From a virus: a stretch of 33,551 bases of DNA. Position 1 is the first letter of the stretch. Every line of letters begins with the position of its first letter. A program made the position numbers and the translations under genes. Location: IMG/VR virus record IMGVR_UViG_3300045988_094565; one strand, written 5' to 3'. Under the pieces are notes generated by a model. It was given only the letters and a program-made list of their open reading frames with translations. It was not told the DNA's origin and searched no databases. Shown piece by piece: positions 9,223-31,452 of the stretch.

Positions 9223-9223
9223 G

Positions 9224-15012: not shown

Positions 15013-15021
15013 TTTCCTTTG

Positions 15022-15308: not shown

Positions 15309-15316
15309 CCCCCCCC
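15309..15316 (-). repeat. G8 homopolymer inside the methyltransferase target-recognition region
   Basis: C8 on the plus strand, at a frame-break point. Confidence 0.9.
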
Positions 15317-15365
15317 TGGATTGACAATAACGTGTTGGTAGTTATGTTTCTTTGTGATGCTTCCG

Positions 15366-15374
15366 CCCCCCCCC
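15366..15374 (-). repeat. G9 homopolymer inside the methyltransferase
   Basis: C9 on the plus strand. The fragment stops 22 nt downstream in the present frame. Confidence 0.9.
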
Positions 15375-15846
15375 AACTCGTAATGTTTTTCCGCAACTGT
15401 TAGGGTCTAAAAGCCCGGTTTCCTCTGCAATGTCCGTAACAACGCTTTCTTCCGTCTGTTCATCTTCCAGGATGATAACGCCGTGTAAATCCTGGGCGGT
15501 AAGTGTAAACATTGGCTCGTCCTCTGCCTTTGCCCTCGGTCCGTTCTGCCGCTTGTTGATACGGTCCGGCGTAATGCACGCATGGCACTTTCCTAAACCC
15601 TCTAGTTTCTCTAACGCCTGGGCTATAATGGTTTGTGCCTTTTCATCCGGCAAGTAATATTTTTCCGGTACATCTTTTTCCAGGTAATCCGATAACTTCG
15701 GTACAAATTCGTGTTGCTCTTTCGGAAATGTAAATGTTAGGTTCTTTTTATTTCTGGTCCCTACTACTGCGTAACGGTCCCGGTTCTGTGGCACGTTCCA
15801 ATATTTGGAATTAAACATTTCAATATGTGCCGTGTACCCGTGGCGT

Positions 15847-16353
15847 TCATATTCCAGGCGTAACACTGGCAGATACGGGCGTAACCCTCGCACATTCTCC
15901 GCAATGATAACGGCCGGCATGGCGTGTTCTCTCTCTCTCTGTTTCTTCAAGTAATCGCATCATTTCAAAGAAACATCCGCTACGGCTCGCCGCCTTAAAA
16001 TTGTTACTGCTGCACTTGGGGCAAATGGTGTTGCCCGTGTACTCTTCCGGGTTTATCTCTATTTCCTCGCCGCAATCCTCGCATTTTAAAATCATGCCCC
16101 GTTGCTTTCCGGCAACGCTCAAATCCTGGCACGGGAAACCAAACGCCCACACATCCGCTTGTGGGATGTCTGCTTGGTGCAATTCCTTAATGTCTGCTTT
16201 CTGTGCATGGTCCCCTACGTTTGCCCGGTAACTCTCCACGGCGTATTTATCAAAGTCCCATGCCCCGGCTATTTCATACCCGGCATTTTTAAATGCAATA
16301 CCCATTCCGCCGCATCCACAAAAGAAGTCATTAACCTTTAATTTTCTTTTCAT
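15847..16353 (-). pseudogene. C5 cytosine methyltransferase N-terminal fragment (motifs I-V) with a CxxC...CxxC insertion
   Basis: DFFCGCGG (motif I), GFPCQDLSVAG (motif IV), CEDCGEE...CPKCSS insertion and RSGCFFEMMRLL. Confidence 0.85.
15928..15940 (-). repeat. (GA)6 dinucleotide repeat at the frame break between methyltransferase motifs V and VI
   Basis: TCTCTCTCTCTCT on the plus strand. One extra GA unit gives ...LLEETEREREHAMPAVIIAENVRGL in frame. Confidence 0.9.
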
Positions 16354-16623: not shown

Positions 16624-16818
16624 TTATAAACTTCTCTGTGCTACTTCTGCCCGGTATGGTGTTCCCCCACGCTTCAATTCGTTATAAATCGTTGCTCTGT
16701 GAAACCCAACCGCCTTTGCAATATCTGTAACCTTTGCCCCGGTTCGCTCCATTGCTTCAATCTTCTGTCTGTCGGCGTATGTAATACGCTTATCTCCTTT
16801 TTTCACGTTTCCGCCCAC
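16624..16818 (-). CDS. Stand-alone helix-turn-helix protein resembling the N-terminal DNA-binding domain of IS30 transposases
   Basis: ITYADRQKIEAMERTGAKVTDIAKAVGFHRATIYNELKRG parallels LSQNDRISMETLLNKGHSVQEVADYLHVHRSTIYREMKRG in the neighbouring transposase. The true start may be the GTG at 16806. Confidence 0.55.
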   Translation of the reverse strand: MGGNVKKGDKRITYADRQKIEAMERTGAKVTDIAKAVGFHRATIYNELKRGGTPYRAEVAQRSL

Positions 16819-16901: not shown

Positions 16902-16940
16902 ATCAAGTGCGATAGAGTTATTAACCCTTGTCGCACTTGA
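16902..16940 (-). terminator. Intrinsic terminator (11-bp stem, T-run on minus strand)
   Basis: ATCAAGTGCGA / TCGCACTTGAT stem, followed on the minus strand by TTTTTTATT. Confidence 0.65.
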
Positions 16941-16961
16941 TTTTACAACTTAGCTTTATAT

Positions 16962-18079
16962 TTTGTCAATAGTTTTGCGACAAGTTTTTGAAAAAATATT
17001 ATGCCGTGATTTTTTCCAACTCTTCTTTAAATAATTCTTCTGATGTTCTAAAACCAAAAATACCCCGTGGGTATGTGTTTATCCAATTTTCTATAAATTC
17101 AATGTCCCTATCTTGCTTTTCGTCAAAATCTTCCCCTTTAGGGATATGGCGGCGTATTAGTTTGTTGGTGTTCTCGTTGGTCCCTCTCTCATAACTACTG
17201 TATGGGTGGCAGTAGAATAGATATGTGCGTTTCTCCCCTGGTGTCAACGCCGAACGCTCCATGCCCTTACAATCCGAAAACTCCACGCCGTTATCTACCG
17301 TGATGCTTCTAAACACTTTAGAAAACATATCTCCCCATTTTCTTTCTAAACGGTCCAGGGCATCCACCACGCTTTCCGCCTTTTGGTCTTTTAGTTTAAA
17401 TATAATCTCGTCCCTGGTCTTTCTCTCTGTTAATACAAGCATACATGATTTTGTAACGCCTTGTTTGCCCTTTACGGTGTCCATTTCCCAATGTCCGAAT
17501 GTTTCACGGGTTGCTACTTCATCCGGGCGGTTCTCTATGCTCTCCCCGGCCGCTGCTCTCTTCTGCACCTGGACTTTCTTATTTTTCTTTTTCTTCTTGC
17601 CCTTAACGGGTAAATGTTTGTTGGTAAGTTTAAGGAATATGCCGTTGTCAATATAGCGGTATAGGGTTCTTACGCTTATAGTGGTACTAAATTCTATCCC
17701 GCTTGTTGCTACTGCTGCCAATGCTGCTTCCGGGCTATATTTATTTTCCACAATCTTATTTTCTATGTATTCCGCCAATTTAATATCATTGCCTATTTTA
17801 ATGTTTCTGCCTTTGCCCTGGGCGTTCCAATCATGGGTCTGTTGCCCCTTATCACTACTATAACGCACCTCTTCCGTATAGTCTGAATTTCTATGTACAT
17901 ACTCGCCCCGTTTCATTTCTCTGTAAATGGTGCTTCTGTGAACGTGTAAATAGTCCGCAACTTCTTGTACGGAATGACCTTTATTAAGTAGTGTTTCCAT
18001 TGATATTCTATCATTTTGGCTTAACTGTTTGTATTTTCTCCCCATAAAAATAACCCCCTTGATACGGCAATAGGGACAA
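16962..18079 (-). mobile_element. IS30-family insertion sequence (ends approximate)
   Basis: A single transposase ORF fills the element. The candidate imperfect terminal inverted repeats TTGTCAATAGTTTTGCGACAAG (16962-) and the reverse complement of 18058-18079, TTGTCCCTATTGCCGTATCAAG, match at 13 of 22 positions. No target-site duplication was confirmed. Confidence 0.4.
16999..18045 (-). CDS. IS30-family DDE transposase
   Basis: N-terminal HTH ...HRSTIYREMKRG. The catalytic core shows FGHWEMDTV (D), ITVDNGVEF (D) and YSSYERGTNENTNKLIRR (E). Confidence 0.85.
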   Translation of the reverse strand: MGRKYKQLSQNDRISMETLLNKGHSVQEVADYLHVHRSTIYREMKRGEYVHRNSDYTEEVRYSSDKGQQTHDWNAQGKGRNIKIGNDIKLAEYIENKIVENKYSPEAALAAVATSGIEFSTTISVRTLYRYIDNGIFLKLTNKHLPVKGKKKKKNKKVQVQKRAAAGESIENRPDEVATRETFGHWEMDTVKGKQGVTKSCMLVLTERKTRDEIIFKLKDQKAESVVDALDRLERKWGDMFSKVFRSITVDNGVEFSDCKGMERSALTPGEKRTYLFYCHPYSSYERGTNENTNKLIRRHIPKGEDFDEKQDRDIEFIENWINTYPRGIFGFRTSEELFKEELEKITA

Positions 18080-20463: not shown

Positions 20464-21408
20464 TTATGCTGCTGCTAAATTGGCGGCGTTTACTGCTGCC
20501 GTCACGGTGTTACCGATACCAATAACAATTCTGTCATTCTTAACCTCGATAACATCATATTTACTGTACCAACACTTAAACATATTACCGTAGTAATCGT
20601 AAGCATTGATAACCTTTACTTTCTGCCCTACCTTGAAACCGTGGGCGTTCTCCGTTTCTTCCTGGGTCGGAATGTCGGTTGGTACTTCTGCATCCGCCGG
20701 GGCTTCTGCAATCTCTTCATCCTTTGCAATGTTGGCGGCGTTTACTGCTGCCGTCACGGTGTTGCCGATACCGATAACAACACGGTCCCCGTTTACCTGG
20801 ATAACATCATATTCATCATAATAGGTTGCAAAACGCACCCCGTTGTATGTGATGTTGTCAATCACTCTTACCTTGTCCCCCACCTTATAACCGTGGGTTT
20901 CCTTGTTCGCCGGTCCCTGGTTCTCTCCGTCCCATGTATCATACTGTGTAAGGTTGTAAGAATTGATGATGTTCATTACATTCTTAATGTATGTAGGGCT
21001 TGTTGCATATCCGCCGTTTTTGATTGCGGTAATGGCACTTTCGGCGTTTCCGTTGTTTACTGCTCCGGCATAACGGGAACTTCCGCAAATCAGATTGTAA
21101 TAATCCGCCACGCTCTCTTCTGGGCTATCATAAGCACGGAAAGCGGCGGTAATCTGCGTGTATGTCTTACCGTCATAGCACTCGTTTGTTTTACTACTGT
21201 AAACCTTGCCTTTCCAACTGCTTCCGGCCTTGATGCCAAAAAACGCATTAGCCTTTGTCATAAGCCCGGATGTTCCCCACCCGGTTTCTAATGCGGCCTG
21301 TGCGATACATACAGACGGTAAAACCCATTTATCACGGGTTAAATATTCTTTTCTTGCGATTGCTGCCAATTTTGCAATAAAGGCGTTTACCTGGTCTTTT
21401 GTTGCCAT
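20464..21408 (-). CDS. Endolysin: N-terminal glucosaminidase-type muramidase domain plus two 84-aa SH3-like wall-binding repeats
   Basis: CIAQAALETGWGTS...AFFGIKA motif. There is a tandem internal repeat with a 252-bp period (KVGDKVRVI...GNTVTAAVNAANIA / KVGQKVKVI...GNTVTAAVNAANLA). Confidence 0.8.
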   Translation of the reverse strand: MATKDQVNAFIAKLAAIARKEYLTRDKWVLPSVCIAQAALETGWGTSGLMTKANAFFGIKAGSSWKGKVYSSKTNECYDGKTYTQITAAFRAYDSPEESVADYYNLICGSSRYAGAVNNGNAESAITAIKNGGYATSPTYIKNVMNIINSYNLTQYDTWDGENQGPANKETHGYKVGDKVRVIDNITYNGVRFATYYDEYDVIQVNGDRVVIGIGNTVTAAVNAANIAKDEEIAEAPADAEVPTDIPTQEETENAHGFKVGQKVKVINAYDYYGNMFKCWYSKYDVIEVKNDRIVIGIGNTVTAAVNAANLAAA

Positions 21409-21411
21409 GTC

Positions 21412-21840
21412 TTATTCCTCGCTTTCTTCTTTTTCTTCCGCTTTCGCTGCGTTCTTGTCCCTTAACTGCAAAAGCACATCTTTTAACTGCTGCGGTATGT
21501 TGATAAATTCCGCCGCATTTTCCAAAATGGAAAGTGCTTCATTGCAGATAAAGAAAACAATAACAATTTCCCTTAATGGTATTGTGTCCCCGGTCATTCT
21601 CTGCACGTTGTAGGCAACTGCGATAACCACAAATACCATGATTTTTTTTACAATCCCCTTAAATCCGATTGCACTTGAAAGTTCTTTTTTATAGACTGCT
21701 TTCAAAATGCCCGTGAAATAATCCAGGATAGCAAAAAGCAATATTGTGTATAACATCACATCCCAACCGCCGAACAACGAAACGATAAAACCGCCAACCA
21801 ATCCGCCAATCACGGAAATAAAGTTAAACATTTTCTCCAT
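21412..21840 (-). CDS. Holin (phage_holin_4-like, multi-TM)
   Basis: FGGWDVMLYTILLFAILDYFTGILKA plus further TM segments and a charged C-terminus. Immediately upstream of the endolysin. Confidence 0.8.
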   Translation of the reverse strand: MEKMFNFISVIGGLVGGFIVSLFGGWDVMLYTILLFAILDYFTGILKAVYKKELSSAIGFKGIVKKIMVFVVIAVAYNVQRMTGDTIPLREIVIVFFICNEALSILENAAEFINIPQQLKDVLLQLRDKNAAKAEEKEESEE

Positions 21841-21911: not shown

Positions 21912-22952
21912 TTACGCCGTTGCTTCCAGGCGTTCCCATTCATAGAATAACAATTCGTATTCAACCGCCTTTGCAATGTGGTATGTGTCGGCGTGTCCTA
22001 AATGTCCCTTTCTGCTTTCATACTTCTGGTTAAATTCTTCCGGCGGCAATTCGCCCAACTCATACGCCTTTACATCTTGCTTTAACTTTCTGATAGATGA
22101 TTTTCTTACTTTCTTGTGGTCTGCATAGTGGATATATCCGCAAAAATCTATGCCATTCCCGGCGTATAGGATTGTGCTTTTAGGGTTAATATGCAAAAGC
22201 ATTTCATTTTCCAAAAATTCTTCTATTCTCTTAACCCATTCTTTTAACTGTTCCAAATCATCCGATAGGATAATAAAATCATCCATGTACCGCACAAAAT
22301 ACGGAATATGTAAAACGTGCTTGCAAAATTTATCTAACTTATTGCCGTACACATTCGCAAATAACTGACTTGTGAGGTTTCCAACGGGTATTCCCACGCC
22401 GTCCGGCAATATGCCGTTGTGGTCTATAATATCATCCATTAACATAAGGGCTTTCTTATCCCCTATATAGCGGCGGTTTTCATCCTTTAATTTGTCATGC
22501 GGTATAGATGCAAAATACTTTGATATATCCCCTTTAAAGGCATACATCCTTAACCCTTGCTTTACCTCTGTTTCATACATCCATTGATACAATGTATCAC
22601 TTGCGGCGTGCATCCCCTTACCGCTCCGGCAAGCGTAAGAATGGTAATAAAATCCGTTTTCAAATACGGGTTGAATAGCGTTACAAATCATGTGTTGCAC
22701 CACTCTATCATAGAACGGTAACGCCATAATAAGCCGTTCTTTTGGCTCAAACACCTTAAATATCTTATATTCCCCTTGCCTATATGTTAAATTCTGTATT
22801 TCCTCGGTTGCTCTTAAAAGTTCCTCTTCCTTAACCATAGAAAAAGCCAATACCTCATTCGTGTACCGCTTGCACCTTGCCGCCTGGTGGAATGAAGTAT
22901 TGGCATTTTCAAAGGTCCCCATTTTCTCATGTAGTCCCTTTACTGTTTTCAT
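21912..22952 (-). CDS. DGR reverse transcriptase
   Basis: RT motifs include RYMDDFIILS (YMDD) and the DGR-diagnostic PVGNLTSQLFANVY ([LIV]GxxxSQ). It lies 160 nt downstream of the TR. Confidence 0.9.
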   Translation of the reverse strand: MKTVKGLHEKMGTFENANTSFHQAARCKRYTNEVLAFSMVKEEELLRATEEIQNLTYRQGEYKIFKVFEPKERLIMALPFYDRVVQHMICNAIQPVFENGFYYHSYACRSGKGMHAASDTLYQWMYETEVKQGLRMYAFKGDISKYFASIPHDKLKDENRRYIGDKKALMLMDDIIDHNGILPDGVGIPVGNLTSQLFANVYGNKLDKFCKHVLHIPYFVRYMDDFIILSDDLEQLKEWVKRIEEFLENEMLLHINPKSTILYAGNGIDFCGYIHYADHKKVRKSSIRKLKQDVKAYELGELPPEEFNQKYESRKGHLGHADTYHIAKAVEYELLFYEWERLEATA

Positions 22953-23111
22953 TTAATCCCTACCAATTTTCAAATATTCTATTTTACTAAAAGGTGGTTT
23001 GCTTTGTTAGTTTGTCCGGTATCGCACCGGAACGGGCAAACCGTCTGACTTACTTAAAATGTAAATCTTTGCTAGTGGCCGCTTGGGCTTCTATGTCTAT
23101 AAAATTGTAAA
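22953..23111 (-). ncRNA. Putative DGR RNA spacer between TR and RT (non-coding, contains nested stem-loops)
   Basis: No ORF. On the minus strand, GTTTG...CCGGT-GCGAT-ACCGG...CAAAC pairing occurs around 23010-23042. The role is inferred by analogy with characterised DGRs. Confidence 0.4.
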
Positions 23112-23238
23112 GTCACACACGCACCGCACACCAATGTTCGTGTTCACGTTCCACGGGTAATTGTTGCAATTGACGGCACGGCTACCGCAATGCACGCCGT
23201 TGTTCCAATTGCCGCCGCCAATGAGGGCGTGCAAGGCT
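23112..23238 (-). repeat. DGR template repeat (TR), 127 nt
   Basis: Aligns without gaps to 23766-23892. All 10 mismatches are at T on the plus strand, which is A on the coding strand of the TR. Confidence 0.92.
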
Positions 23239-23307
23239 CAGAAAGTTCCGTGAACTGGCCCGGTGCATATTAACAGTTTCCCCAAAATAAAATTGGCAAT
23301 GCCAACA

Positions 23308-23697
23308 TTATTTCCAATTTCCATTCTTTACGGCTTCGATTATTCCGCCAATGATACATCCTAATTCTGTCATTTTCTTGCTCAATACTTCGTATCTGTG
23401 TTTGCTCATTGCCGGATATTCCAAATCGTAGGAAAGCCGTATGAGGGTTTTGATAAACTGCAACTCTACATCTGCGTTATATATATGGCTCTTTGTCCCG
23501 GTCTTTCTAAATCTGATTACTGATTTAAGCATTTCAAAAACCGCCGTTTTAATTTGGCTCTGCAATGCGAATTTCTCAAATTTCGGAAACTGTGACAATA
23601 TGGGATAAAGGTATAAAAGAAAATCATAGGTCTTTTGATACGCTTTCATGCTCTCCATATACGCATCCGCTTGATTGCTTTTCTTGTTCTCTGCCAT
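23308..23697 (-). CDS. avd: DGR accessory variability determinant (Avd, four-helix-bundle family)
   Basis: 129 aa, helical and basic, positioned between the target gene and the TR. The pattern resembles Avd / 23S rRNA-IVS family proteins. Confidence 0.8.
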   Translation of the reverse strand: MAENKKSNQADAYMESMKAYQKTYDFLLYLYPILSQFPKFEKFALQSQIKTAVFEMLKSVIRFRKTGTKSHIYNADVELQFIKTLIRLSYDLEYPAMSKHRYEVLSKKMTELGCIIGGIIEAVKNGNWK

Positions 23698-23729
23698 GTT
23701 TTTATCCTCGGTTTATATATTTTTCTATG

Positions 23730-23749
23730 GGGTGGGCTTTCGCCCACCC
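23730..23749 (-). promoter_or_regulatory. 8-bp GC-rich hairpin with GAAA tetraloop, 16 nt downstream of VR
   Basis: The minus strand reads GGGTGGGC-GAAA-GCCCACCC. It lies between the target stop codon and avd. Confidence 0.75.
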
Positions 23750-23756
23750 TGGCAGA

Positions 23757-24851
23757 TTACAGACTGTCACACACGCACCGCACACCAATGCTCGCGCCCA
23801 CGTACCACGGGTAAGTGTTGCAAATGACGGCACGGCTACCGCAACGCACGCCGTTGTTCCAACCGCCGCCGCCAATGAGGGCGTGCAAGGCTGTTTGTGA
23901 CGGCATATAAATTTGACCGTAGCCGGACATAACATTGTACCAATTCCAGGATGCAGCGGTTGGGTCTAAACACAACTCGTTAAGCCACTCCCACACGTTC
24001 CCGGCAATATCCATAATATTTTTTACAGAAATTGCATTTTTGATTTTTCCAACGGCGGTTCTTGCGGTGTTTGTTGTTGCGGTCCAACCGTTTGTATTGC
24101 TACCGTCTAATCCCTGGGGGCTTCCCTCTGCTGCAATTAACCACTCTGCAAAGTCCGGTAAACGCTTTCCGACACGGGCAGCCTTTTCATTGGCAATATA
24201 CCAATTTAAACCCTCTGTACCCGTAATAGGCGTTGCATTATATACAGATTGTAAGCCGTTCGCCCCATCATCTGATGCAAGGTAAATATCAGCCCACAAA
24301 CCATTCCCCAGGTATGCCATACCGGACGGGTCGCACTTCGGACGGTGTAAGGCGGTCCATACAGAGTTAGGGGCAATGTCCTCACGCACGTTACTTTCCC
24401 AACCGCTACCACGCACACTTCCACTTGTATTTACTTCTCTGCCGTATTCATCCACATTTCTAACAAAGCCATAATGGAAACCGCCAATTTTACGGGTGTT
24501 TGTATCGTCCCATTCCACGCCGTCCGGGAATGTGGAATTTTCAGAGATTAAATAAACCTCGTTTGAACTGTCCTTGCCATTGTTGCATAAGTAAATGTAA
24601 TAATCTTTGCCGTGTGCAAAGCTGCTTGCACCGTCCAGGTTGGCGGCGGAAAGCGTTGTTTCTTCGGTCTGAAAAATGGCATCCCCTACCGCAATAACTG
24701 CCCCGGCAAGCACGGTTAATTGTCCGGCTGCGGAATACTGTATAAACGCCTTTTCACTCGCTACAATGTCCGATACGGCGGCCATTTTAGCAACTGTGAT
24801 TTTCGCCCTCTCGTCCGTCATATTCTCGTCATAAACAAATAATCTTCCCAT
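23757..24851 (-). CDS. DGR target protein: tail-fibre-associated receptor-binding protein with C-terminal C-type-lectin / FGE-sulfatase-like fold
   Basis: GNVWEWLNE motif. The C-terminus GGGGWNNGVRCGSRAVICNTYPWYVGASIGVRCVCDSL carries the VR. Last gene of the tail module. Confidence 0.88.
   Translation of the reverse strand: MGRLFVYDENMTDERAKITVAKMAAVSDIVASEKAFIQYSAAGQLTVLAGAVIAVGDAIFQTEETTLSAANLDGASSFAHGKDYYIYLCNNGKDSSNEVYLISENSTFPDGVEWDDTNTRKIGGFHYGFVRNVDEYGREVNTSGSVRGSGWESNVREDIAPNSVWTALHRPKCDPSGMAYLGNGLWADIYLASDDGANGLQSVYNATPITGTEGLNWYIANEKAARVGKRLPDFAEWLIAAEGSPQGLDGSNTNGWTATTNTARTAVGKIKNAISVKNIMDIAGNVWEWLNELCLDPTAASWNWYNVMSGYGQIYMPSQTALHALIGGGGWNNGVRCGSRAVICNTYPWYVGASIGVRCVCDSL
23766..23892 (-). 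repeat. DGR variable repeat (VR), 127 nt, encoding the last ~42 codons of the target gene
   Basis: 117 of 127 positions identical to the TR. The differences are confined to TR adenines. Confidence 0.92.
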
Positions 24852-25345
24852 TATGCTAACTCTCCTTTCATCTGCTCCACTTCCTCTTCTGTAATTCCCA
24901 GGCGGTCATAAAATGTAACCTCTGCCGGAATACCGATTGTAGCCGCATCCGCCGCAATAGCCTTTGAAAGTGTTAAAATTGTGTGCTTGGTCTGATTGTT
25001 ATTTGTGGTTGTTTCGGTATCTGCTGCCGCCGTTCCCTCTGTTGCTGCCGCTTCCTGGTCTGCTTCTGCTGCCTTTTCAACCTCAATATGCTCCACGGTC
25101 TTAACGGTTGCGGTCACGTTCCCGGCTTTTACCTTGTCCCCCTCTGTAACCTCGTTTACAAACATAAGGGTAACGCCCTTTCTGTCCTCGGTTTTCTCCA
25201 GGATAGGGCAAAAGATGAAATTCTGATTTTCCAACTTCTCAACTGCTGCCAACCAATCTTCTTTCTTCAATCTGCCTTTCTTTACAAGTTTGTAAGTGTT
25301 GACTAAATCCGCCTTTGTCTTAATTACTTTTGGAAATCCTACCAT
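24851..25345 (-). CDS. Hypothetical tail-module protein with an Ala/Thr/Glu-rich low-complexity linker
   Basis: 164-aa ORF with start/stop overlap to its neighbours. Confidence 0.5.
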   Translation of the reverse strand: MVGFPKVIKTKADLVNTYKLVKKGRLKKEDWLAAVEKLENQNFIFCPILEKTEDRKGVTLMFVNEVTEGDKVKAGNVTATVKTVEHIEVEKAAEADQEAAATEGTAAADTETTTNNNQTKHTILTLSKAIAADAATIGIPAEVTFYDRLGITEEEVEQMKGELA

Positions 25346-25366: not shown

Positions 25367-26407
25367 TTATTGTGCAATAAATGAACCAATATAATTTCCG
25401 ATATAGCCCAGGTTTGAACCCTCACGCAATGTAATATTCTGCGTTGTCATAAGATTATCGTTTGTAACCTTAAAGGCTTTCGGTGTAACCATAACGCTTT
25501 CCAAATCCGCTTCCACGGTGTATTCTCCGGCTTCCGTGACATAAAAGCCCATTTGGCTTTTTGTAACAGTAACCGTCTGCATGGTCCCCGTGGTCTTATT
25601 CGTAAGTTTTACCGTTACCGGGCTTGTAATCTGCTCCAATGTGCTAATGATGTAAACCTTAAAGGCAATGTTGTAAACCTTTTCTTTTACATCATCAATC
25701 TGTAATTGCAGTTTCCCGGCAATGTCCCCGGAAAGTTCCGTTTGCTTCTCTTTAAACCACTTATTCCATTGTGCTTCCTGGTCCGTCATAAACGCTTGTG
25801 TCATTTCGGCGTATTCTTCAATGAAATTTGCATGGTCTTGTTCCATGCTCTTTTTTTCCAGGGCGAACCATGCGTTAAATTGCTTTGTGAACTGTGAAAA
25901 ATCAAAATCCTCAAACTGTGATGCAATGAAACCGCACAATCCCGTGTCTGCCCTGGTGTCTGTAATATCACTTTGGGATATTGCCACCGCTCCGGCTGCC
26001 ACATAAATTTCCGCCAAACATTTTTCCTGGATTGTGTCATTGTTCGTAAGTTCCGGCGGCTGCGGATTGCTTGAATATGCCCCCTCTAAAATAAAAATGC
26101 TTGGTTTTCGCTCTGTTTCATCATTCCGCAATATTACACGGTCAATTCTTGGCAATGTACCGTTCGAACCGCTCACGGGCAATTCTAGGACTGTTGTATT
26201 ATGGATTGTGTGCAAGTTGATGTATGCGTACCCGGTACGGCTTCCGCCGTCCACCTTTACCGCCATACTTTCCCCGTCTGCGGTTACTTGCAAATGTCCA
26301 TACGCCACACCCTCTTTATAGAACGGGGCTTTGTCCTCGTTCATATCCTGGCCGTTGTATAAGCGGTCTTTATTTACGGAATTGTAAAAAAATCCTCTTA
26401 CTGCCAT
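25367..26407 (-). CDS. Putative tail fibre / baseplate structural protein
   Basis: The N-terminal pattern ...DRLYNGQDMNE...PRIDRVILRND...ITDTRADTGLCGF resembles conserved N-termini of Firmicutes prophage tail-fibre proteins. Located after the Tal-like gene. Confidence 0.5.
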   Translation of the reverse strand: MAVRGFFYNSVNKDRLYNGQDMNEDKAPFYKEGVAYGHLQVTADGESMAVKVDGGSRTGYAYINLHTIHNTTVLELPVSGSNGTLPRIDRVILRNDETERKPSIFILEGAYSSNPQPPELTNNDTIQEKCLAEIYVAAGAVAISQSDITDTRADTGLCGFIASQFEDFDFSQFTKQFNAWFALEKKSMEQDHANFIEEYAEMTQAFMTDQEAQWNKWFKEKQTELSGDIAGKLQLQIDDVKEKVYNIAFKVYIISTLEQITSPVTVKLTNKTTGTMQTVTVTKSQMGFYVTEAGEYTVEADLESVMVTPKAFKVTNDNLMTTQNITLREGSNLGYIGNYIGSFIAQ

Positions 26408-26426: not shown

Positions 26427-27473
26427 CTAATTGTCCCAATTTATGGTTGTGGGTAGGGCATCCCCAAAAGTAGGAACAACATACATTCCGCCGTATTCGT
26501 AAACCTCGCAAAGTTCCGTAATGCGTAAATTTAATACTTTGTTCCATTTTGCCTTTTCTACTGTCACAATGTCCCCTAAATCGTAATCCGTGCCATAGAT
26601 AAAATTAACCTCGGCTTCCACTTCGGCTTCTATGTTCTCAATCACGGCGTTTTCCGCTTTGTACTGCTCCCCCCGGATGCGTAACGCTTCCAGGTATTCC
26701 GCATTGGTTGAAAAATCATCTTTATTTATGTCTTTGGCATCCAAAAACTCTTCCCGTAAATCAAACCCCGTTCCGCCGCCTACCGTTACATAAATACGGT
26801 CCGCACCGTCCCCGGCCCCACCTACAACAATCTTTGTTTTGGCGGTTTCGTCTGAATAGGTATGTTTTGCACGGTTTAGGTTGTTGTAACTCTCTGAAAA
26901 GATTACACGGGGCTTTGTGCCTTGCTTCGTGGTTCTGTCTATGCCTTTATATGTTTCAAAGGTCATTTTCTTACCCTTAAAGTCCGGCACTACTCTAAAG
27001 CCCAATTCACAATACCTGGCAATCTTAGAAAGATAGGTTAATACATTCTTATAGGTTGCCTGGAATGTTATTTTGGTTGCATCCCCTATTCCTGGGGCCA
27101 CTTCCAACAACGGTACTGCTGCCATGCGGTTAATCATATAACGCATAGCATCTTCACACGTTCCGTTAAATGTAAACATGGGACCGGTCAATCTGTCATT
27201 AAAATATATAGGCAGAAAATAGCCATTTCGCACAATCTCATTTACAAGGGTGCTTTCCTCTTCTGTCTGGTCCCCACGGATAACGGCGGCTTCATCCTTT
27301 CCCTTTGGCCTTATTACATTACCCGGCTGCAAAAGCCTTATGTTGTCCTCTGTTGCCGGGGCGTGTAACTCAAACGTGCCACACTCGTAATATTTTCTAT
27401 GCCATTGTAAGGATGTATGGTTTTCAATCGTCCCCAGGCGGTACAAATTGCGGTCATATACAATAATTTCCAT
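26427..27473 (-). CDS. Tail-tip (Tal-like / Gp37-like) protein; start moved to ATG 27473
   Basis: MEIIVYDRNLYRLGTIEN...LQWHRKYYECGTFELHAP pattern. Follows Dit. The upstream extension in the track overlaps Dit. Confidence 0.55.
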   Translation of the reverse strand: MEIIVYDRNLYRLGTIENHTSLQWHRKYYECGTFELHAPATEDNIRLLQPGNVIRPKGKDEAAVIRGDQTEEESTLVNEIVRNGYFLPIYFNDRLTGPMFTFNGTCEDAMRYMINRMAAVPLLEVAPGIGDATKITFQATYKNVLTYLSKIARYCELGFRVVPDFKGKKMTFETYKGIDRTTKQGTKPRVIFSESYNNLNRAKHTYSDETAKTKIVVGGAGDGADRIYVTVGGGTGFDLREEFLDAKDINKDDFSTNAEYLEALRIRGEQYKAENAVIENIEAEVEAEVNFIYGTDYDLGDIVTVEKAKWNKVLNLRITELCEVYEYGGMYVVPTFGDALPTTINWDN

Positions 27474-27477
27474 GCTC

Positions 27478-28431
27478 TTACACCCCCAAATATGAAATGC
27501 GATAATATACGGACACGGATAAATAGTTAATGCCGCTTTCTGCATTGTATGTAATGGTGTTTGTGCCGTCCTGCAACTGTATAAAATCCCCGTCCTCGTC
27601 CAAATACTGATTTATGATTGTTCCGTACATAGAAACAACCGTTTCCCAATCAATCATTCCGTAACGGTCCTTGTGTTCCTCAATTTCTGCCTGGCTCACA
27701 CCGTCCAAAAGGTATATATTTTTCTTTCCGGTGTGCGTGAAAATAACCACATATTTGCCGCTTTGCAATTCAAAATCATTTCCGGCATAACCGACTTTTA
27801 TATATTTCCCGCTCTCTGAATGGTAAATAGCCGGATTTTTTACAATGCCGTCCGCTCTGAATATTGCAGTTATTCCGATATTGTCCGCACCGTTGTTATT
27901 TTCAATTTCCTTTACCAACTCGGCTTCCCGGTGTCCAAATTCCACGCCGTTAATATCAAACCCGTTTTCAAAGTACCAATCTGATACCCAACTTGCCATT
28001 ACCACTTCCACATCTGACAGGTCCTTAAAATACGGGTCGGTGCAAATAAGGCTAATTGTATAATCCCTTACAACGCCCGTTGTTGCCCCTGGTGTCACGC
28101 TTTCCACTCTGTAAGTGATTGTTTTTATATCCCCGTCCTCGCTATATTCAAGCGTTCCGGTTCTACCCTTTGGGAACACTCTATACAGTAATTCCCGGTT
28201 CTTTCTGTAATCTCCGTCAATCTCTGCGGTTATTACAATGTTTCTTTCCTTTGCCGTGCTTCCCTGGTATGTGCTGCCGTCTGTTGTGGTGTTTTCTGAT
28301 GTGGTAACATTGCAATCATAACCATATATTCCGTCAAGCCCTAATAGGTGGAATGGGTTATTGTCCCAATCCCACCTAAAGGCAATAGAAACATTTTTAT
28401 CATTTGTGCAAGTAACTGTAATATCTGCCAT
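27478..28431 (-). CDS. Distal tail protein (Dit)
   Basis: 317 aa directly downstream of the tape measure, with a typical siphovirus tail-component N-terminus. Confidence 0.65.
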   Translation of the reverse strand: MADITVTCTNDKNVSIAFRWDWDNNPFHLLGLDGIYGYDCNVTTSENTTTDGSTYQGSTAKERNIVITAEIDGDYRKNRELLYRVFPKGRTGTLEYSEDGDIKTITYRVESVTPGATTGVVRDYTISLICTDPYFKDLSDVEVVMASWVSDWYFENGFDINGVEFGHREAELVKEIENNNGADNIGITAIFRADGIVKNPAIYHSESGKYIKVGYAGNDFELQSGKYVVIFTHTGKKNIYLLDGVSQAEIEEHKDRYGMIDWETVVSMYGTIINQYLDEDGDFIQLQDGTNTITYNAESGINYLSVSVYYRISYLGV

Positions 28432-28434: not shown

Positions 28435-31400
28435 TTACCCCCTCTGCATTGCAATAACCATTGCACGGGTCTGTATTCTCGTTTGTCTTGCTACTTCATA
28501 AGGGGATAGGGCTTTAGGACTTGTAATATTGATTTCCTGGTGGAAACCGCTATTGTTGCCCTTTAGGTTGTCTGCTGCCGTGTTTACCGCCGAACCCGTA
28601 AGCGGTGTTACAACTGCCTTTCCGTTTACCATGCTTAAAAGTTCCGGTCCGGCTTCTGCTACCATTGCCGTACCCTCTCTTAATACACCGCCTTTTGCTA
28701 ATCTTGGAAGTGAAAGTGTATCTATTTTTGAAAGTGAAACGCCCGGTATCTCATTGATAATTCCAATTACTCCGTTAATCATACCGATAAACTTATTTAC
28801 AACGCCCTCTATGGTTGATAAACAACTGTTGATTGCCGATTTAAAAGCATCCCCAACCGCTGAACCGATAGCCACACCGACATTTACGAAACAACCTTTG
28901 ATTTTCTCCCATAAATCAGAGAAAAAGGAAGTTACATTGGCAAATGCGTTTTTTATGTTCGTCCATGCGTTATCAAACTGTGTTTTAAACCATGTTGGAA
29001 CGGATGCAAGGGCGGTTTTTATCTCCGTCCACCTTGCCCCGAACCATGAACCGATTGCAGCGAATACATTTGTTACATTGGTGTATGCGTTTGTGAACAT
29101 AGTTAAAAACCATGTGGCTACTGCTGCAAGGGCGGTTTTTATGTCGTTCCACCTGGCGGCGAACCATGAACCGATTGCAGCGAATACGTTTGTTACATTC
29201 GTATAGGCATTTGTAAACATGGTAAGAAACCACGTTGCCACGGTCGCAAGGGCGGTTTTTATGTCGTTCCACCTGGCGGCGAACCATGAACCGATTGCAG
29301 AAAAAATTGTGGTTATTGCGTTCCATGCTTCCGTAAATCTGTCACTGAACCACTGACCCACGCCCTGGAATACGGCAACAATGCTATTCCAAATATTGGT
29401 AAATAATGTTTTTACATTTACGCCGAACCCCTCTAAAAATCCGATTATGAAATTTATAACCGCCTGGATGATGTTTTTTACAAACGATATTGCACTATTA
29501 AACGCACCTTGCAGATACGAAAAGAAACCGTCAAAATCTCCATGTAATAACGCTATAATGGCATTTATGATATTGGTAACAAAATCAATCACATTTTGGA
29601 TTGCTGCAATTATCGGTGCTGCTGCATTGATAACCCCATTTACAATACTTGCTATGTATGTAAGAACAAATTCAAATACGGGTTTTAATGCAGCCATGAG
29701 GTTAATAAACGCTTGCTTTAGGCTCTCCAAAAGCGGTTGTATGGTTGTCCACATCTGTGAAAAGGCATCCTTTACCTTTCCTATGGTCCCGTCCACTTTC
29801 TCTTTAAATTCATCATTCGTTTTATATAAAGCAATGAACCCGGCGGCAAGTGCCGCTATAATAGCAATCACTATTCCAACCGGTCCCGTGAGTGCTGATA
29901 AAACACCACTCATTCCGCCTATTTTGCTTGTTAATCCCGTTACGGTTTTTATTACCCCGGATATTCCCGTTGACATTTTCCCAAATATGATTAAAGCCGG
30001 GCCGATAGCCGCAACAATCATTCCGATTTTTACAATCATCTGCTTTGTGTTGTCGTCCAGGTTTTTAAACCATGTTGTAAACTCTTTTACCTTGTTCACA
30101 ACCTTATCAATTGTTGGCTGCAATGTGGTTAAAATGGAACTTCCCAGGTCTGCCCCGGCAAGTTTCAAATTGTTCATTGCTACGGCTGCATCATCCCACG
30201 GGTCTAATGTGGTTTCAAATGTGTCACTTACCACATCCCCATAGTCTGATAAAGCACCGCTTAAATCGTCTACGGATAAACGCCCCTCACGGATTGCCTG
30301 GGTCATTTCCGCCGCACCTTTCTTTCCGAAAAGGTCGGATGCAATGGTTAAGGCTTCCGTTTCTGTCTTTGCGTTTTTAATGCTATCTATTGTTTCGGTC
30401 AATGCTTCGTCTGCACTCTTGCCGTCTGCCGTTGCGTTCTGAACCGCTTTTTTCATTCCGGCAAGTGCGGTTGAAACATCAACGCCGCTTGCTTCCATTT
30501 GTGCAAGCAAATTAACGGATGATGTTAAATCAAGCCCCATTTCTTTAAGGCTTGCACCGTTGGTTGTAAGTGCGGTTTCCAATGTTTCCATTGAAATACC
30601 CGTGTCCTGGCCCGCTTTTGTCATAAGCCCCAACACATTTTTTGTCTGTGAAGCATCAACGCCGAATTTTGTCATAACACTGTCCACGCTATCAATAGCC
30701 GTGTTTAAATCCGTTCCGTTGATGTTTGCAAATTTAATAAATTCTTTTGAAAGATTTTCTAACTCTGTCCCGGTTGCCCCGAACCTTGTATTTACTTCTC
30801 CAACCGCTACGCCCACATCATCCATTGTAGTTGGCATATCTGAAAATACATTGTCCGCTACTGTCGTAAGGCTTTCCAGGGCTTCCCCGGTTGCTCCCGT
30901 CTTGGTAATAATGGTGTCATAGCCGTTATCTAATTCCATAGATGCAGCAACCCCGGCTGCTCCTAATGCGGTTATTCCGGCCGTTACGGGCATCATCTTT
31001 TCCCCGGCTTTGGTTGCCTTATCCCCTACCGTTCCAAAAGCATCCCCCACCTTTGCAAGCGTTGAATTACTCGCCTTTGCTTGCTCTTCCAGGTTTTTAA
31101 GTTCTGCTTCCGTTGCGATTACTTCACGTTTGATTGCCCGGTACTGCTCCTCGGATGCTTCGCCGTTTTTAAACTGCTGCTCCACCTGGGCTTCTGCCGT
31201 TTTTAATACATCTAATTTATCTTTGGTTTCGCCTACTGCCTTTGTAAGCAACTGTTGTTTCTGTGCTAAAAGTTCGGTATTCTTGGGGTCTAATTTCAAG
31301 CCCTTTTCAACCTCTTTTAACTCATTCTTGGTACTTTTGAGGTCCCCGTTTACACCCTTTAAGGCATTTTGCAACTTGGTTGTATCTCCGCCAATCTCAA

Positions 31401-31452
31401 TAGTAATACCCTTAATGTTGTTAGCCACTTGATTTTCCCCCTTTCTTTCCAA
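28435..31452 (-). CDS. Tape measure protein
   Basis: 1005 aa with a coiled-coil N-terminus, a hydrophobic central region and Trp/Phe-periodic tandem repeats. Follows the G/T chaperones. Confidence 0.9.
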   Translation of the reverse strand: MERKGENQVANNIKGITIEIGGDTTKLQNALKGVNGDLKSTKNELKEVEKGLKLDPKNTELLAQKQQLLTKAVGETKDKLDVLKTAEAQVEQQFKNGEASEEQYRAIKREVIATEAELKNLEEQAKASNSTLAKVGDAFGTVGDKATKAGEKMMPVTAGITALGAAGVAASMELDNGYDTIITKTGATGEALESLTTVADNVFSDMPTTMDDVGVAVGEVNTRFGATGTELENLSKEFIKFANINGTDLNTAIDSVDSVMTKFGVDASQTKNVLGLMTKAGQDTGISMETLETALTTNGASLKEMGLDLTSSVNLLAQMEASGVDVSTALAGMKKAVQNATADGKSADEALTETIDSIKNAKTETEALTIASDLFGKKGAAEMTQAIREGRLSVDDLSGALSDYGDVVSDTFETTLDPWDDAAVAMNNLKLAGADLGSSILTTLQPTIDKVVNKVKEFTTWFKNLDDNTKQMIVKIGMIVAAIGPALIIFGKMSTGISGVIKTVTGLTSKIGGMSGVLSALTGPVGIVIAIIAALAAGFIALYKTNDEFKEKVDGTIGKVKDAFSQMWTTIQPLLESLKQAFINLMAALKPVFEFVLTYIASIVNGVINAAAPIIAAIQNVIDFVTNIINAIIALLHGDFDGFFSYLQGAFNSAISFVKNIIQAVINFIIGFLEGFGVNVKTLFTNIWNSIVAVFQGVGQWFSDRFTEAWNAITTIFSAIGSWFAARWNDIKTALATVATWFLTMFTNAYTNVTNVFAAIGSWFAARWNDIKTALAAVATWFLTMFTNAYTNVTNVFAAIGSWFGARWTEIKTALASVPTWFKTQFDNAWTNIKNAFANVTSFFSDLWEKIKGCFVNVGVAIGSAVGDAFKSAINSCLSTIEGVVNKFIGMINGVIGIINEIPGVSLSKIDTLSLPRLAKGGVLREGTAMVAEAGPELLSMVNGKAVVTPLTGSAVNTAADNLKGNNSGFHQEINITSPKALSPYEVARQTRIQTRAMVIAMQRG
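28990..29300 (-). repeat. 120-bp (40-aa) tandem repeat, about 2.6 copies, inside the tape measure gene
   Basis: Units start at 28990, 29110 and 29230 (IGSWFAARWNDIKTALA.VATWFLTMFTNAYTNVTNVFAA). Confidence 0.9.

Follow-up and report, generated by a model that had tools for sequence, protein, structure and literature searches.

Does the region between the tail and lysis genes of this phage genome hold a complete diversity-generating retroelement (DGR), and if it does, is a receptor-binding protein being diversified? The open reading frame (ORF) list and a repeat search of the window, i.e., the whole 33,551-nt stretch of DNA that was analysed, placed all four parts of a DGR cassette on the minus strand: a target gene encoding 364 aa (23757..24851), which ends in the VR (23766..23892); avd, the accessory variability determinant, encoding 129 aa (23308..23697); a 127-nt TR with 27 adenines (23112..23238); and a reverse transcriptase (RT) gene encoding 346 aa (21912..22952). 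The initial annotation had given coordinates for these four parts, and every one was correct when the ORFs and the repeat were rechecked. It had also likened the cassette to mtd-avd-TR-brt of phage BPP-1 and set it between tail and lysis genes, and both the gene order with its orientation and the placement were borne out. On the coding strand, the tape measure, Dit-like, and Sipho_Gp37-like genes and two further tail-module ORFs lie upstream, and the target is the final gene of the tail module, followed downstream of the cassette by a holin (21412-21840) and a glucosaminidase endolysin (20464-21408). Each of the four parts is backed by an independent test, which confirmed the element as a complete BPP-1-type DGR. 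We consider it highly probable that this DGR is functional and belongs to the tail module of a siphovirus-like, temperate phage whose hosts are human-gut Clostridia/Lachnospiraceae.

The two 127-nt repeats are 92% identical, and the identity ends sharply at either side. The RT-proximal copy has 27 adenines, and each of the 10 mismatches is at one of them (hypergeometric p = 4e-8), so that the TR and VR proposed from the sequence stand, with differences at adenines only. The VR covers codons 320-362 of the 364 target codons, in agreement with its earlier assignment to the last ~42 codons, and its end is 6 nt from the target stop codon. When any base was allowed at the TR adenines, the TR pattern matched only the TR and VR sites in the window (chance expectation none), and thus no second target was found there. 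Of the TR adenines, 26 of 27 are at codon position 1 or 2, nine AAY codons are present, and no stop codon can be reached by substitution at these adenines. The RT-templated change would touch up to 16 codons, and with 26 mutable adenines the computed number of variants is 4.5e15 for DNA and 6.3e14 for protein.

The 129-aa protein, initially described as Avd-like, passed the equivalog cut-off of NCBIfam NF033474 DivGenRetAVD (93.8 bits, cut-off 80) and matched Pfam bAvd (3e-25, 89 bits, cut-off 40), Bbp7/Avd in PDB (4e-5), and phrog_3206, 'Avd protein of DGR'. Its exact sequence is found in RefSeq as 'MULTISPECIES: diversity-generating retroelement protein Avd [Lachnospiraceae]', and it is equal residue for residue to ASN95743.1, CBK90587.1, EDP15694.1, and EEQ60011.1. 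The identical protein is present on >1000 contigs.

The RT carries the motifs VRYMDDF and PVGNLTSQ, so the YMDD and GNLTSQ reported for ORF 21912-22952 were confirmed. Its best PDB match is BPP-1 bRT (8ub7_A, E 5e-51, 177 bits), followed by retron-type and group II RTs at about 55 bits (E about 1e-13, 5e-14 or worse), and it matches phrog_1423 at 4e-116. It is 35% identical to Brt over residues 5-331 and keeps the equivalents of bRT K29, F66, R74, I76, D138, G182, and Q187 as well as YMDD; bRT I181 is replaced by V, with VGNLTSQ aligned to IGSLTSQ in the motif-4 signature [I/V]GxxxSQ of DGR RTs. It is extremely improbable that the enzyme is a prokaryotic RT of a different class (group II intron, retron, or Abi/DRT) and that the partial duplication of a gene, unrelated to it, produced the 127-nt repeat. 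Such an origin would agree with a Pfam result limited to the generic RVT_1 family and with a group II intron RT as the top NCBIfam match. However, this model, for which the cut-off is 300, reached only 113 bits and tops the list because NCBIfam has no DGR RT model, and the other non-DGR RT models of NCBIfam, including Drt and retron, were all far below their cut-offs. Furthermore, no maturase/X domain, endonuclease domain, intron RNA, or Rfam match was found at the RT locus, an Avd equivalog adjoins the RT region, and the adenine-only mismatches described above also argue against such a duplication. Assignment to a group II, retron, or Drt type was rejected on these PDB and NCBIfam scores; the refuting outcome named in the initial annotation, an RT that clusters with non-DGR RTs, did not occur, bRT being the nearest relative in PDB and those RTs far from it.

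The target protein consists of an N-terminal region, an Mtd second domain (Pfam Mtd_2nd, 9e-30, 103.7 bits, cut-off 24.6), and a C-terminal FGE-sulfatase/C-type-lectin-like domain ending in the VR (Pfam FGE-sulfatase, 3e-10, 40.6 bits, cut-off 23.3). In a phmmer search of PDB, residues 30-364 aligned to residues 58-378 of Mtd 1yu4 (E 4e-15), and five Mtd structures were the sole significant Foldseek matches (E about 1e-13, TM about 0.56). The protein also matches phrog_11262, 'tail protein' (2e-71). The VR scaffold residues W, GSRA, P, and IG.R.VCD align with their Mtd counterparts. The domain architecture of the target is that of the Mtd family of phage receptor-binding proteins, and its scaffold, which the initial annotation had thought might be new, is the known Mtd scaffold. 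BPP-1 DGR proteins are therefore the best solved-structure relatives of the RT, the target, and Avd alike. The AlphaFold model, with a mean pLDDT of 65.6 and values below 50 over residues 328-364, is weak where it covers the lectin/VR part, and the variable residues are predicted to be surface-exposed from the sequence alignment to Mtd.

The position of the gene points to a putative trimeric receptor binder at the tail-fibre tip that acts through these variable residues, and homology together with gene position suggests that the DGR would drive tropism switching. A working DGR could instead diversify something other than the primary receptor-binding protein, e.g., a protein for variable glycan or mucus binding or a secondary adhesin. 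Two tail-module ORFs of unassigned role (346 aa and 164 aa) directly upstream of the target leave room for such a role, as does the poorly modelled lectin domain. However, the homology to Mtd, the proven tropism determinant of BPP-1, is full-length and includes the Mtd-specific second domain; moreover, the VR scaffold residues align with those of Mtd, and the target gene is the last of the tail module, ahead of lysis. We regard the alternative role as unlikely and the Mtd-like receptor binder as the preferred reading.

Downstream of the VR, a hairpin/cruciform on the minus strand (23730..23749), GGGTGGGC-GAAA-GCCCACCC, has an 8-bp GC-rich stem and starts 16 nt past the end of TR/VR homology and 7 nt past the target stop codon. 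Its DNA fold has an energy of -11.2 kcal/mol (z = -4.5), which was equalled by none of 200 shuffles. The functional rule for the BPP-1 hairpin is a 7-10 bp GC-rich stem with a 4-nt GRNA loop, 4-34 bp from the VR (Guo et al. 2011), which the hairpin here matches in stem, loop, and distance. Relatives have a G-rich stem of varying sequence and a GRNA loop (GAAA, GATA, GGCA, and others), with 18 distinct perfect stems. No BPP-1-like IMH/IMH* pair, i.e., a 21-bp segment with few mismatches, was found: the identity stops at GTGTGAC and the following 21 nt are unrelated. Past the last variable adenine, TR and VR share only a 23-nt G/T/C-rich block, with no IMH*-like partial similarity downstream.

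The 159-nt spacer between TR and the RT start (22953..23111, minus strand) has an order of elements that matches the BPP-1 DGR RNA (Handa et al. preprint). These are a stem-loop H1 (23073-23093), a candidate Avd-binding element; a primer strand AGUCA (23046-23050) with a predicted priming adenosine at 23046; a Stop-duplex strand (23033-23045); a short stem-loop (23015-23031) followed by CAAA; an A-rich single strand; and a 3' region with conserved AGUA(G/A) and GAAA. The core reads GGUCA(56)GCCGGUU in BPP-1 and AGUCAGACGGUU here, which align as GGUCA56-GC-CGGUU and AGUCA-G-ACGGUU, with the priming motif GTCAG common to both. An H1 hairpin was predicted in every relative though the sequences differ. 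All 18 relatives have AGTCAGA unchanged, and its pairing partner, the TR end TGAC plus T, is equally invariant (18/18); since this helix does not vary, covariation cannot support it.

Covariation is found in a second duplex, which brackets the TR. The spacer Stop-duplex strand pairs over 12 bp (-16.6 kcal/mol) with UGGGGAAACUGUU at 23272..23284 on the minus strand, 34-46 nt 5' of the TR; the counterpart of this upstream segment in the BPP-1 'cPRT Stop' duplex is the avd strand. A bracketing duplex of 12-16 bp is present in 18/18 relatives in 10 different sequence versions, and cognate strands pair at a mean of -19.7 kcal/mol versus -12.2 kcal/mol for non-cognate strands. Compensatory changes occurred across relatives in this duplex and in the short stem-loop, and RNAalifold independently predicted the bracketing duplex in part, along with the TR-end:AGUCA helix. 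The proposed structure has 82% of cells paired where shuffles have 74%, and it scores 0.251 for covariation, which none of 500 shuffles reached, versus 0.131; slid registers of the structure were far worse. For the 3' part of the spacer, no consensus structure was found among relatives, the 3' RT-binding stem-loop was likewise absent from the prediction, and the spacer RNA had no Rfam match. The spacer has the BPP-1 RNA elements in their BPP-1 order, each with a predicted role.

To what extent the VR varies was compared between samples, across 57 independent contigs or assemblies, which came from a metagenome scan anchored solely on the VR 3' flank with viral contigs and one genome match added. 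All 57 VRs were distinct, and the TR was identical in 37 of 54 related contigs. Mismatches to the TR were found at 41.6% of A sites versus 1.05% of other sites in the 57 VRs, and at 41.2% versus 1.08% in the 48 contigs with both repeats, where the non-A mismatches came mostly from three poor assemblies. Non-adenine differences concerned about 0.4-1% of VR positions, with one per VR in ~1/3 of contigs. The 300 nt upstream of the VR diverged by 4.6%, and the non-A positions of the VR were thus more uniform than the remainder of the target gene, as expected if the TR repeatedly overwrites the VR. Within the sampled lineage the RT was 98-100% identical. In 90%-identity protein clusters, distinct sequences numbered 12,503 for the target, 4,022 for the RT, and 822 for Avd, making the target cluster 3-15 times richer than the other two, and when 15 members of the target cluster were compared, residues 320-364 contained 21 of the 31 variable positions. 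As the initial annotation had anticipated for reads mapped to a live element, the VR varied almost solely at A-templated positions, with a constant TR, in this comparison of 57 independent assemblies between samples. The hypervariation of the VR alongside a near-invariant TR is strong indirect evidence for mutagenic homing in this lineage.

It should be noted that the between-sample diversity shows diversification of the lineage, as distinct from current activity of this copy. A relic, intact in sequence but with mutagenic homing lost and VR differences that are historical, would be compatible with variation examined between samples only and with the lack of a recognisable IMH/IMH* pair. However, the three ORFs are full length with the catalytic and template-contact residues kept, the hairpin and RNA elements are conserved, and the VRs are all unique beside a nearly invariant TR in a lineage of almost identical RTs. 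The uniformity of the VR non-A positions relative to neighbouring gene sequence furthermore needs recent, repeated copying from the TR. A relic is therefore very unlikely, and in this lineage the DGR is evidently active and probably still rewriting the tip of the putative receptor-binding protein.

By homology with BPP-1, we infer the following course, including the priming nucleotide, the cDNA start, homing, and the consequence for tropism. A transcript covering the avd-TR intergenic region, the TR, and the 159-nt spacer would fold about an RT-Avd complex. The spacer AGUCA would pair with the 3' end of the TR (UGAC and the next U) and the neighbouring spacer strand with the segment upstream of the TR, so that two duplexes bracket the template. 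The cDNA would be cis-primed from spacer adenosine 23046, start opposite TR G123 (23116), and proceed 5' through the TR, with the RT misincorporating opposite the 26 adenines upstream of the cDNA start. The mutagenised cDNA would then replace the VR in the Mtd-like gene, with target recognition probably aided by the GC hairpin with its GAAA loop downstream of the VR. Up to 16 codons would change as a result, and at the protein level the tail receptor-binding protein could display about 6e14 variants of its C-type-lectin face, presumably with changed receptor specificity.

The element shares with BPP-1 (Liu et al. 2002; Guo et al. 2011; Handa et al. 2018-2024) an Mtd-type target with the VR at its extreme 3' end, Avd, an RT that matches along its full length at 35% identity and in which active-site and template-contact residues are retained, an AAY-rich TR, a GC hairpin of 8 bp that follows the VR and has a GAAA loop in both elements, and the order of spacer elements with the near-identical core GUCAG-(C/A)-CGGUU. 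However, the TR has 134 nt and 23 A in BPP-1 and 127 nt and 27 A here, the cDNA starts 17 nt from the TR end in BPP-1 and is predicted to start 4 nt from it here, and the first spacer stem-loop here has a pentaloop. The upstream bracketing strand, which is inside the avd 3' end in BPP-1, is intergenic here in the 69-nt gap between avd and TR, and beyond the common GTGTGAC there is no IMH/IMH* similarity. The hosts also differ, being Pseudomonadota there and Bacillota/Clostridia here, as do the phages: BPP-1 is a short-tailed Rauchvirus, and the tail module here is siphovirus-like and includes a long tape measure.

The DGR is a member of a well-known, abundant class and is not novel. Related RTs were found on >580 IMG/VR contigs, about 66 of 73 related IMG/VR loci have the order VR-avd-TR-spacer-RT with adenine-biased mismatches, and an RT 99% identical is in a 1.19-Mb contig of Clostridiaceae bacterium Marseille-Q4145. 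We found no paper describing the DGR of this phage, but the suggestion that this particular element is new did not hold, as Lachnospiraceae RefSeq genomes already list the identical protein as a DGR Avd and hundreds of relatives have the same layout. CBK90587, one of the entries with the identical Avd, is presumably from Eubacterium rectale DSM 17629, given its accession range. Guo et al. 2011 (Fig. 5) depicted a phage-related DGR of E. rectale DSM 17629. PHROG families 1423 and 3206, present here, were also reported for LM41 phi3 of Clostridium clostridioforme, and the comparison with DGRs of gut Lachnospiraceae/Clostridia prophages covered Avd, RT, and PHROG families. The Mtd domain, the VR in a C-type-lectin fold, and the flanking phage genes are those of the Mtd-type 'category a' (CLec1 VR) of Wu et al. 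2018; such targets were rare in that GenBank survey (12/372) and are very common in gut metagenomes. From its literature description, Hankyphage of Bacteroides (Benler et al. 2018) also has a DGR on a tail protein and is a globally widespread temperate gut phage for which a broad host range was linked to the DGR, whereas its host phylum and phage lineage are different.

The phage itself is a circular and probably IS30-mobilised ('IScream'-type) element that is very common in the human gut. One prophage end carries an IS30 transposase of full length that faces outward (NF033563, 235.8 bits, cut-off 80), and a 64-aa remnant related to the IS30 N-terminus spans the circular junction (E 7e-9). Integrated copies, in which one prophage end was observed, were found in 11 contigs at 11 different chromosomal sites, with ends at window positions 16955-16957 and unrelated flanks. 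In all 11 insertions a sigma-70-like promoter lies beyond the phage end, with its -35 box about 26 nt downstream of that end. Among the profiled ORFs, a subset of all ORFs, neither a tyrosine nor a serine integrase was found. The phage chassis, as distinct from the DGR, resembles the IScream phages (Wirbel et al., bioRxiv 2025) in its outward IS30 transposase at one end and a truncated IS30 presumably at the other, its Clostridia hosts, its many integration contexts, and the lack of another integrase among the ORFs profiled here. That preprint mentions neither a DGR in these phages nor a target-site preference, and we found no earlier description of promoter-adjacent insertion preference in the literature. 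The identical Avd occurs in several Lachnospiraceae species. We tentatively propose, as a possibility on the doubtful side, that DGR variation of the Mtd tip lets one lineage adsorb to and lysogenise different genera while the IS30 enzyme removes the need for a host-specific att site, which together, as two devices of low specificity, would explain the cross-genus 'lysogenic host range' recently reported for such phages.

Conceptually, the DGR is nothing new but a clean, abundant Mtd-type example from Gram-positive gut anaerobes, and the IS30 chassis with its promoter-adjacent insertions is the more unusual feature of this phage. Marseille-Q4145 is an isolate that may carry the element as a prophage, Lachnospiraceae genomes with the identical Avd also exist, and with thousands of natural VR variants public, the lineage is suited to linking VR sequence with gut host range. 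The priming core GUCAG-N-CGGUU and the covarying TR-bracketing duplex are common to a Bordetella podophage and a Clostridia siphophage, which supports the view that cis-priming, as seen by cryo-EM for BPP-1, is a general mechanism and yields a precise prediction here, with adenosine 23046 as the priming nucleotide and G 23116 as the first template base.

The diversity-generating retroelement (DGR) of the window is encoded entirely on the minus strand. ORF calling returned the three genes of the initial annotation at the same coordinates, namely a target gene of 364 aa (23757-24851), an avd gene of 129 aa (23308-23697), and a reverse transcriptase (RT) gene of 346 aa with the motifs VRYMDDF and PVGNLTSQ (21912-22952). 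A repeat finder detected one long direct repeat of 127 nt with 92% identity, whose copies are the RT-proximal template region (TR, 23112-23238) and the variable region (VR, 23766-23892) at the 3' end of the target gene. Identity between TR and VR stops abruptly on either side, and all ten differences fall at TR adenines on the coding strand, which number 27 in 127 nt (hypergeometric p = 4e-8). With up to three mismatches allowed, the A-to-N pattern of the TR matched two sites in the window, the TR and the VR, where none would be expected by chance, and the window therefore contains a single target. The VR comprises codons 320-362 of the 364-codon target gene. Codon position 1 or 2 holds 26 of the 27 TR adenines, nine codons of the TR/VR design are AAY, and no substitution at TR adenines can produce a stop codon. 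The 26 adenines located 5' of the predicted cDNA start affect 16 codons and allow 4.5e15 DNA variants and 6.3e14 protein variants.

Profile and structure searches assigned all three proteins to the BPP-1 type, named after the Bordetella phage with the reference DGR (mtd-avd-TR-brt). In Pfam, the RT matched RVT_1, the 129-aa protein matched bAvd (89 bits, cut-off 40), and the target matched the Mtd second domain (104 bits) and FGE-sulfatase; the Avd also cleared the NCBIfam DGR-Avd equivalog cut-off (93.8 bits vs 80). Among all PDB sequences, the top match of the RT was BPP-1 bRT (E 5e-51, 177 bits), followed by retron-type and group II RTs at ~55 bits. Scores with the NCBIfam non-DGR RT models were all far under cut-off (113 of the required 300 bits for group II, and likewise for Drt2-5, Drt3a, and retron models). 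Compared directly with Brt of the BPP-1 record, the RT showed 35% identity over residues 5-331 and kept equivalents of bRT K29, F66, R74, I76, D138, G182, and Q187 together with the YMDD aspartates, with valine at the position of bRT I181. Because the RT is closest to bRT and the non-DGR models fall far below their cut-offs, these matches argue against a placement with group II, retron, or Abi RTs and favor the DGR reading proposed initially. The top PDB matches of the Avd were Bbp7/Avd. The target matched Mtd variants best, with an alignment that spans its residues 30-364 (E 4e-15). A 32-sequence alignment yielded an AlphaFold2 model of the target of only moderate confidence (mean pLDDT 65.6), which was good at residues 30-170 but poor where the lectin domain and the VR lie and served for fold search only. 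In a Foldseek search of the PDB with this predicted model, five Mtd structures were the sole significant matches (E ~1e-13, TM ~0.56), which is consistent with an Mtd-like fold.

Diversification of the VR was assessed across assemblies. IMG/VR was scanned with the A-to-N pattern of the TR, and metagenomes were scanned with an exact 44-nt pattern made up of the last 8 nt of the VR, its unique 3' flank, and the adjoining hairpin, which was chosen because the VR had to stay unconstrained and which matched 49 human-gut contigs. One genome match was added, and the VR was then read without constraint. All 57 VRs in 57 contigs were distinct, and the TR was identical in 37 of 54 contigs. In the 57-contig set, VR and TR mismatched in 41.6% of A-templated cells vs 1.05% of other cells, with A sites read as A (58%), G (26%), T (9%), or C (6%). 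When each VR was compared with the TR on the same contig (48 contigs), the values were 41.2% at A sites vs 1.08% elsewhere, and three assemblies that are poor or divergent account for most of the latter differences. Against the window, the 300 nt preceding the VR showed a mean difference of 4.6%, so that the non-A positions of the VR vary less than the remainder of the target gene, as would result from repeated copying of a conserved TR into the VR. Among the proteins, the 90%-identity clusters contained 12,503 distinct target sequences vs 4,022 for the RT and 822 for the Avd, and 21 of the 31 variable positions among the 15 listed members of the target cluster lie in residues 320-364. The expected restriction of variability to A-templated positions was thus borne out between samples, rather than at read level, with a TR that is mostly constant. 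A few TRs depart from the consensus: those of contigs L004 (407-532) and L008 (616-741) differ at one adenine (A to G and A to C, respectively), and several TR adenines are replaced in the low-coverage assemblies L039 and L048. These four variants are probably TR/VR assembly chimeras, but they could alternatively reflect rare mutagenized cDNA landing in the TR.

Homing of the BPP-1 DGR needs a hairpin with an 8-bp GC-rich stem and a 4-nt loop just downstream of the VR, in which the stem sequence can vary freely whereas the GAAA loop is fixed; phage DGR hairpins in general have 7-10 bp stems and GRNA loops and lie 4-34 bp from the VR (Guo et al. 2011). The window has the hairpin GGGTGGGC-GAAA-GCCCACCC at 23749-23730, which obeys all of the hairpin rules of Guo et al. 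(2011) and lies 7 nt past the stop codon and 16 nt past the point where TR and VR cease to be identical. As DNA, it folds with -11.2 kcal/mol (z = -4.5), an energy matched by 0 of 200 shuffled sequences. A strict search for perfect stems of at least 6 bp in 56 related loci found hairpins in 24, with 18 different stems and exclusively GRNA loops (GATA, GGCA, GAAA, GGTA, GGAA, and GACA). In many of the remaining loci, this hairpin could be recognized by eye with a single mismatch or bulge. However, unlike BPP-1, the window element has no recognizable pair of IMH/IMH* target-site segments, as the flanks of VR and TR are unrelated beyond a common GTGTGAC.

The RNA elements of the BPP-1 DGR have been defined by cryo-EM (Handa et al., bioRxiv 10.1101/2023.10.23.563531). 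They include an Avd-binding stem-loop right after the TR, the priming adenosine A56 of the spacer paired beside the first template base (TR G117), and an adjacent second duplex, the 'cPRT Stop', between spacer 59-70 and the avd 3' end, as well as a short stem-loop with adenosines after it, a single-stranded 'thumb ring', and an RT-binding stem-loop (bioRxiv 10.1101/2023.10.23.563531). Relatives of the window element were gathered by RT profile search, and more than 580 IMG/VR stretches encode one; about 66 of the 73 loci examined have the VR-TR-spacer-RT layout and adenine-biased mismatches. For the spacer we compared 18 non-redundant relatives with RT identities of at least about 43%. A single-sequence MFE fold of the upstream-TR-spacer RNA was uninterpretable, with the TR paired with its own flanks, and the comparative analysis was preferred.

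The motif AGTCAGA is invariant in the 18 relatives and complementary to the invariant TR end TGAC and the next T. This primer helix was predicted unaided by RNAalifold and is paired in all 18 sequences; since it never varies, it is supported by conservation and BPP-1 homology rather than by covariation. The sequence around A56 of BPP-1 is GGTCA-GC-CGGTT, compared with AGTCA-G-ACGGTT in the window element. Next to it, spacer GACGGTTTGCCCG (23045-23033) pairs with TGGGGAAACTGTT (23284-23272), 34-46 nt upstream of the TR. This bracketing duplex of 12-16 bp occurs in 18 of 18 sequences, for two of which (L120 and L121) the upstream segment was picked with the complementarity already known, and it exists in ten sequence versions (e.g., GGGGTAGCTGT/ACGGCTATCCC, GGGCAAAGCGTT/AACGCTTTGCCC, and TGGTTAATAGT/ATTATTGACCA). 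The linker length differs by 1 nt between subgroups. Per-sequence duplex energies were used because counting column by column gives too low a score for the 5' half of the duplex (65% paired), and they averaged -19.7 kcal/mol for cognate vs -12.2 kcal/mol for non-cognate strands. A short spacer stem-loop at 23031-23015, followed by CAAA, covaries, and a hairpin is predicted directly after the TR in every relative, with unrelated sequences and, in more distant relatives, often a UNCG-type tetraloop. In the whole proposed structure, 82% of cells were paired vs 74% in shuffles, and its covariation score of 0.251 vs 0.131 was reached by none of 500 shuffles; slid registers were down to 32-52% paired. 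RNAalifold gave no consensus for the 3' third of the spacer, and an Rfam scan of the cassette (E up to 1) gave no match and no curated DGR RNA family.

By homology with BPP-1, cDNA synthesis would be primed from the adenosine at 23046, and the first template base would be the G at 23116 (TR position 123). The predicted site agrees with the variation, since the last varying adenine is TR position 104 and the adenine at TR position 126 was constant in the small number of VRs that left this position unconstrained. Loci L122-L160, whose RTs are about 38-45% identical, keep the VR-TR-RT layout and the GRNA-loop hairpin (mostly GATA or GGCA, ~33-40 nt after the VR). The AGTCAGA primer motif is absent from their spacers, which instead have the order CCAGAAG, stem-loop, TCCAGTGC. 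A promoter and terminator scan of the cassette performed no better than chance, and we assign no promoter to the TR RNA. The same chance-level scan reported a terminator-like hairpin on the minus strand at 23292-23306 (GTTGGCATTGCCAAT and a subsequent T-run), directly 3' of the avd stop codon and just 5' of the strand pairing with the spacer. This hairpin could delimit or influence the 5' end of the TR RNA.

The cassette lies between tail and lysis genes, as described in the initial annotation. PHROG and Pfam matches indicated a siphovirus-type tail module with a tape measure (28435-31452), a Dit-like protein (27478-28431), and a Sipho_Gp37-like protein (26427-27545), and the cassette is followed by a holin (21412-21840) and a glucosaminidase endolysin (20464-21408). 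Directly upstream of the target are two minus-strand ORFs, one of 346 aa (25367-26407), whose PHROG matches are labelled 'head protein' despite its position in the tail module, and one of 164 aa (24851-25345), whose stop overlaps the target start codon and which had no match in Pfam, PHROGs, or NCBIfam. These two ORFs may encode a fiber or adaptor carrying the Mtd protein. No tRNA genes were found.

An exact 141-nt direct repeat at the ends of the window (1-141 and 33411-33551) shows that the genome is circular and complete, with a length of 33,410 bp. An IS30-family transposase is encoded at 16999-18045 (minus; NCBIfam 236 bits, cut-off 80), and the profiled ORFs included no tyrosine or serine integrase. 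In 11 integrated copies from metagenome and genome contigs, similarity to the window is lost at 16955-16957, a point that the transposase faces and that lies 42 nt past its stop codon. The copies share the phage end ...CTTGTCGCAAAACTATTGACAAAATATA, beyond which the 11 flanks are mutually unrelated. Across the circular junction, a 64-aa ORF (16624-16818) related to the transposase N-terminal HTH (E 7e-9) is an IS30 remnant, and the IR core CTTGTCGCA occurs on both sides of the junction (~16956). The junction of IS circles is known to create a promoter. Since the joined phage ends read TTGACA-N18-TAAAAT (window ~16930-16990), the junction of the phage circle may create one as well.

The IS30 organization fits that of the IS30-bound 'IScream' phages described by Wirbel et al. 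(2025). On the minus strand, we also observed a ParA-like AAA_31 protein (9224-10054, 1.4e-34), weak matches to ParB_N (8296-9222) and Rep ORF2/G2P (10051-10971), and a VRR-NUC protein (7373-8122); this plasmid-like maintenance and replication set (7373-10971) fits the 'phage-plasmid ancestor' idea of the IScream preprint. A C5 cytosine DNA methylase is apparently split over three consecutive minus-strand ORFs (14314-16353), with FCGCGG and FPCQ-type motifs recognized by eye in the first (15847-16353) and matches to the middle and the C-terminal end of PF00145 in the second (15342-15950) and third (14314-15012), respectively. This arrangement could stem from frameshifts or an insertion, or the gene could be truly split.

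The host flanks beside the phage end ...TTGACAAAATATA were compared in contigs L014, L018, L034, L040, L045, L046, L054, L055, L057, L061, and L063. All 11 carry a sigma-70-like -35/-10 pair whose distance from the phage end hardly varies, and the -35 box starts 25-27 nt from that end in nine. The hexamers matched at 9-12 of 12 positions, whereas 1,400 random 80-nt windows drawn from these flanks averaged 7.5; at least ten positions matched in 7 of 11 flanks vs 1.4% of the random windows. As unrelated flanks all have such a pair at a near-constant distance and above the level of random windows, their sequences suggest that the phage inserts next to promoters. The preprint of Wirbel et al. (2025) mentions neither promoter-adjacent insertion or any other target preference nor a DGR in IScream phages.

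An RT with 99% identity was found on a contig of 1.19 Mb from Clostridiaceae bacterium Marseille-Q4145, and one with 98% identity in a Clostridia MAG from the Hadza gut. An identical Avd is present on more than 1000 contigs, the longest of 6.57 Mb, and is annotated in NCBI as 'MULTISPECIES: diversity-generating retroelement protein Avd [Lachnospiraceae]'; one identical accession, CBK90587.1, is presumably from the Eubacterium rectale DSM 17629 genome. The hairpin of a phage-related DGR of this strain has already been drawn (Guo et al. 2011), Mtd-type targets with CLec1 VRs form category 'a' of Wu et al. (2018), and the same PHROG pair appeared in a study of C. clostridioforme prophages. A megablast of the cassette against 50,697 GenBank phage records returned nothing at 85% nucleotide identity or above, which places the phage outside the cultured or named phages deposited there at this level, and a literature search found no paper naming the identical-Avd accessions. 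Given the annotated identical Avd and the related DGRs and Mtd-type targets already described, the DGR is one more, and very abundant, representative of an established kind, and its parts are already machine-annotated in public genomes. The DGR is complete, belongs to the BPP-1/Mtd type, and diversifies in nature, and we infer that it would drive tropism switching. The DGR itself is little new, and the phage chassis that carries it is the more interesting part.
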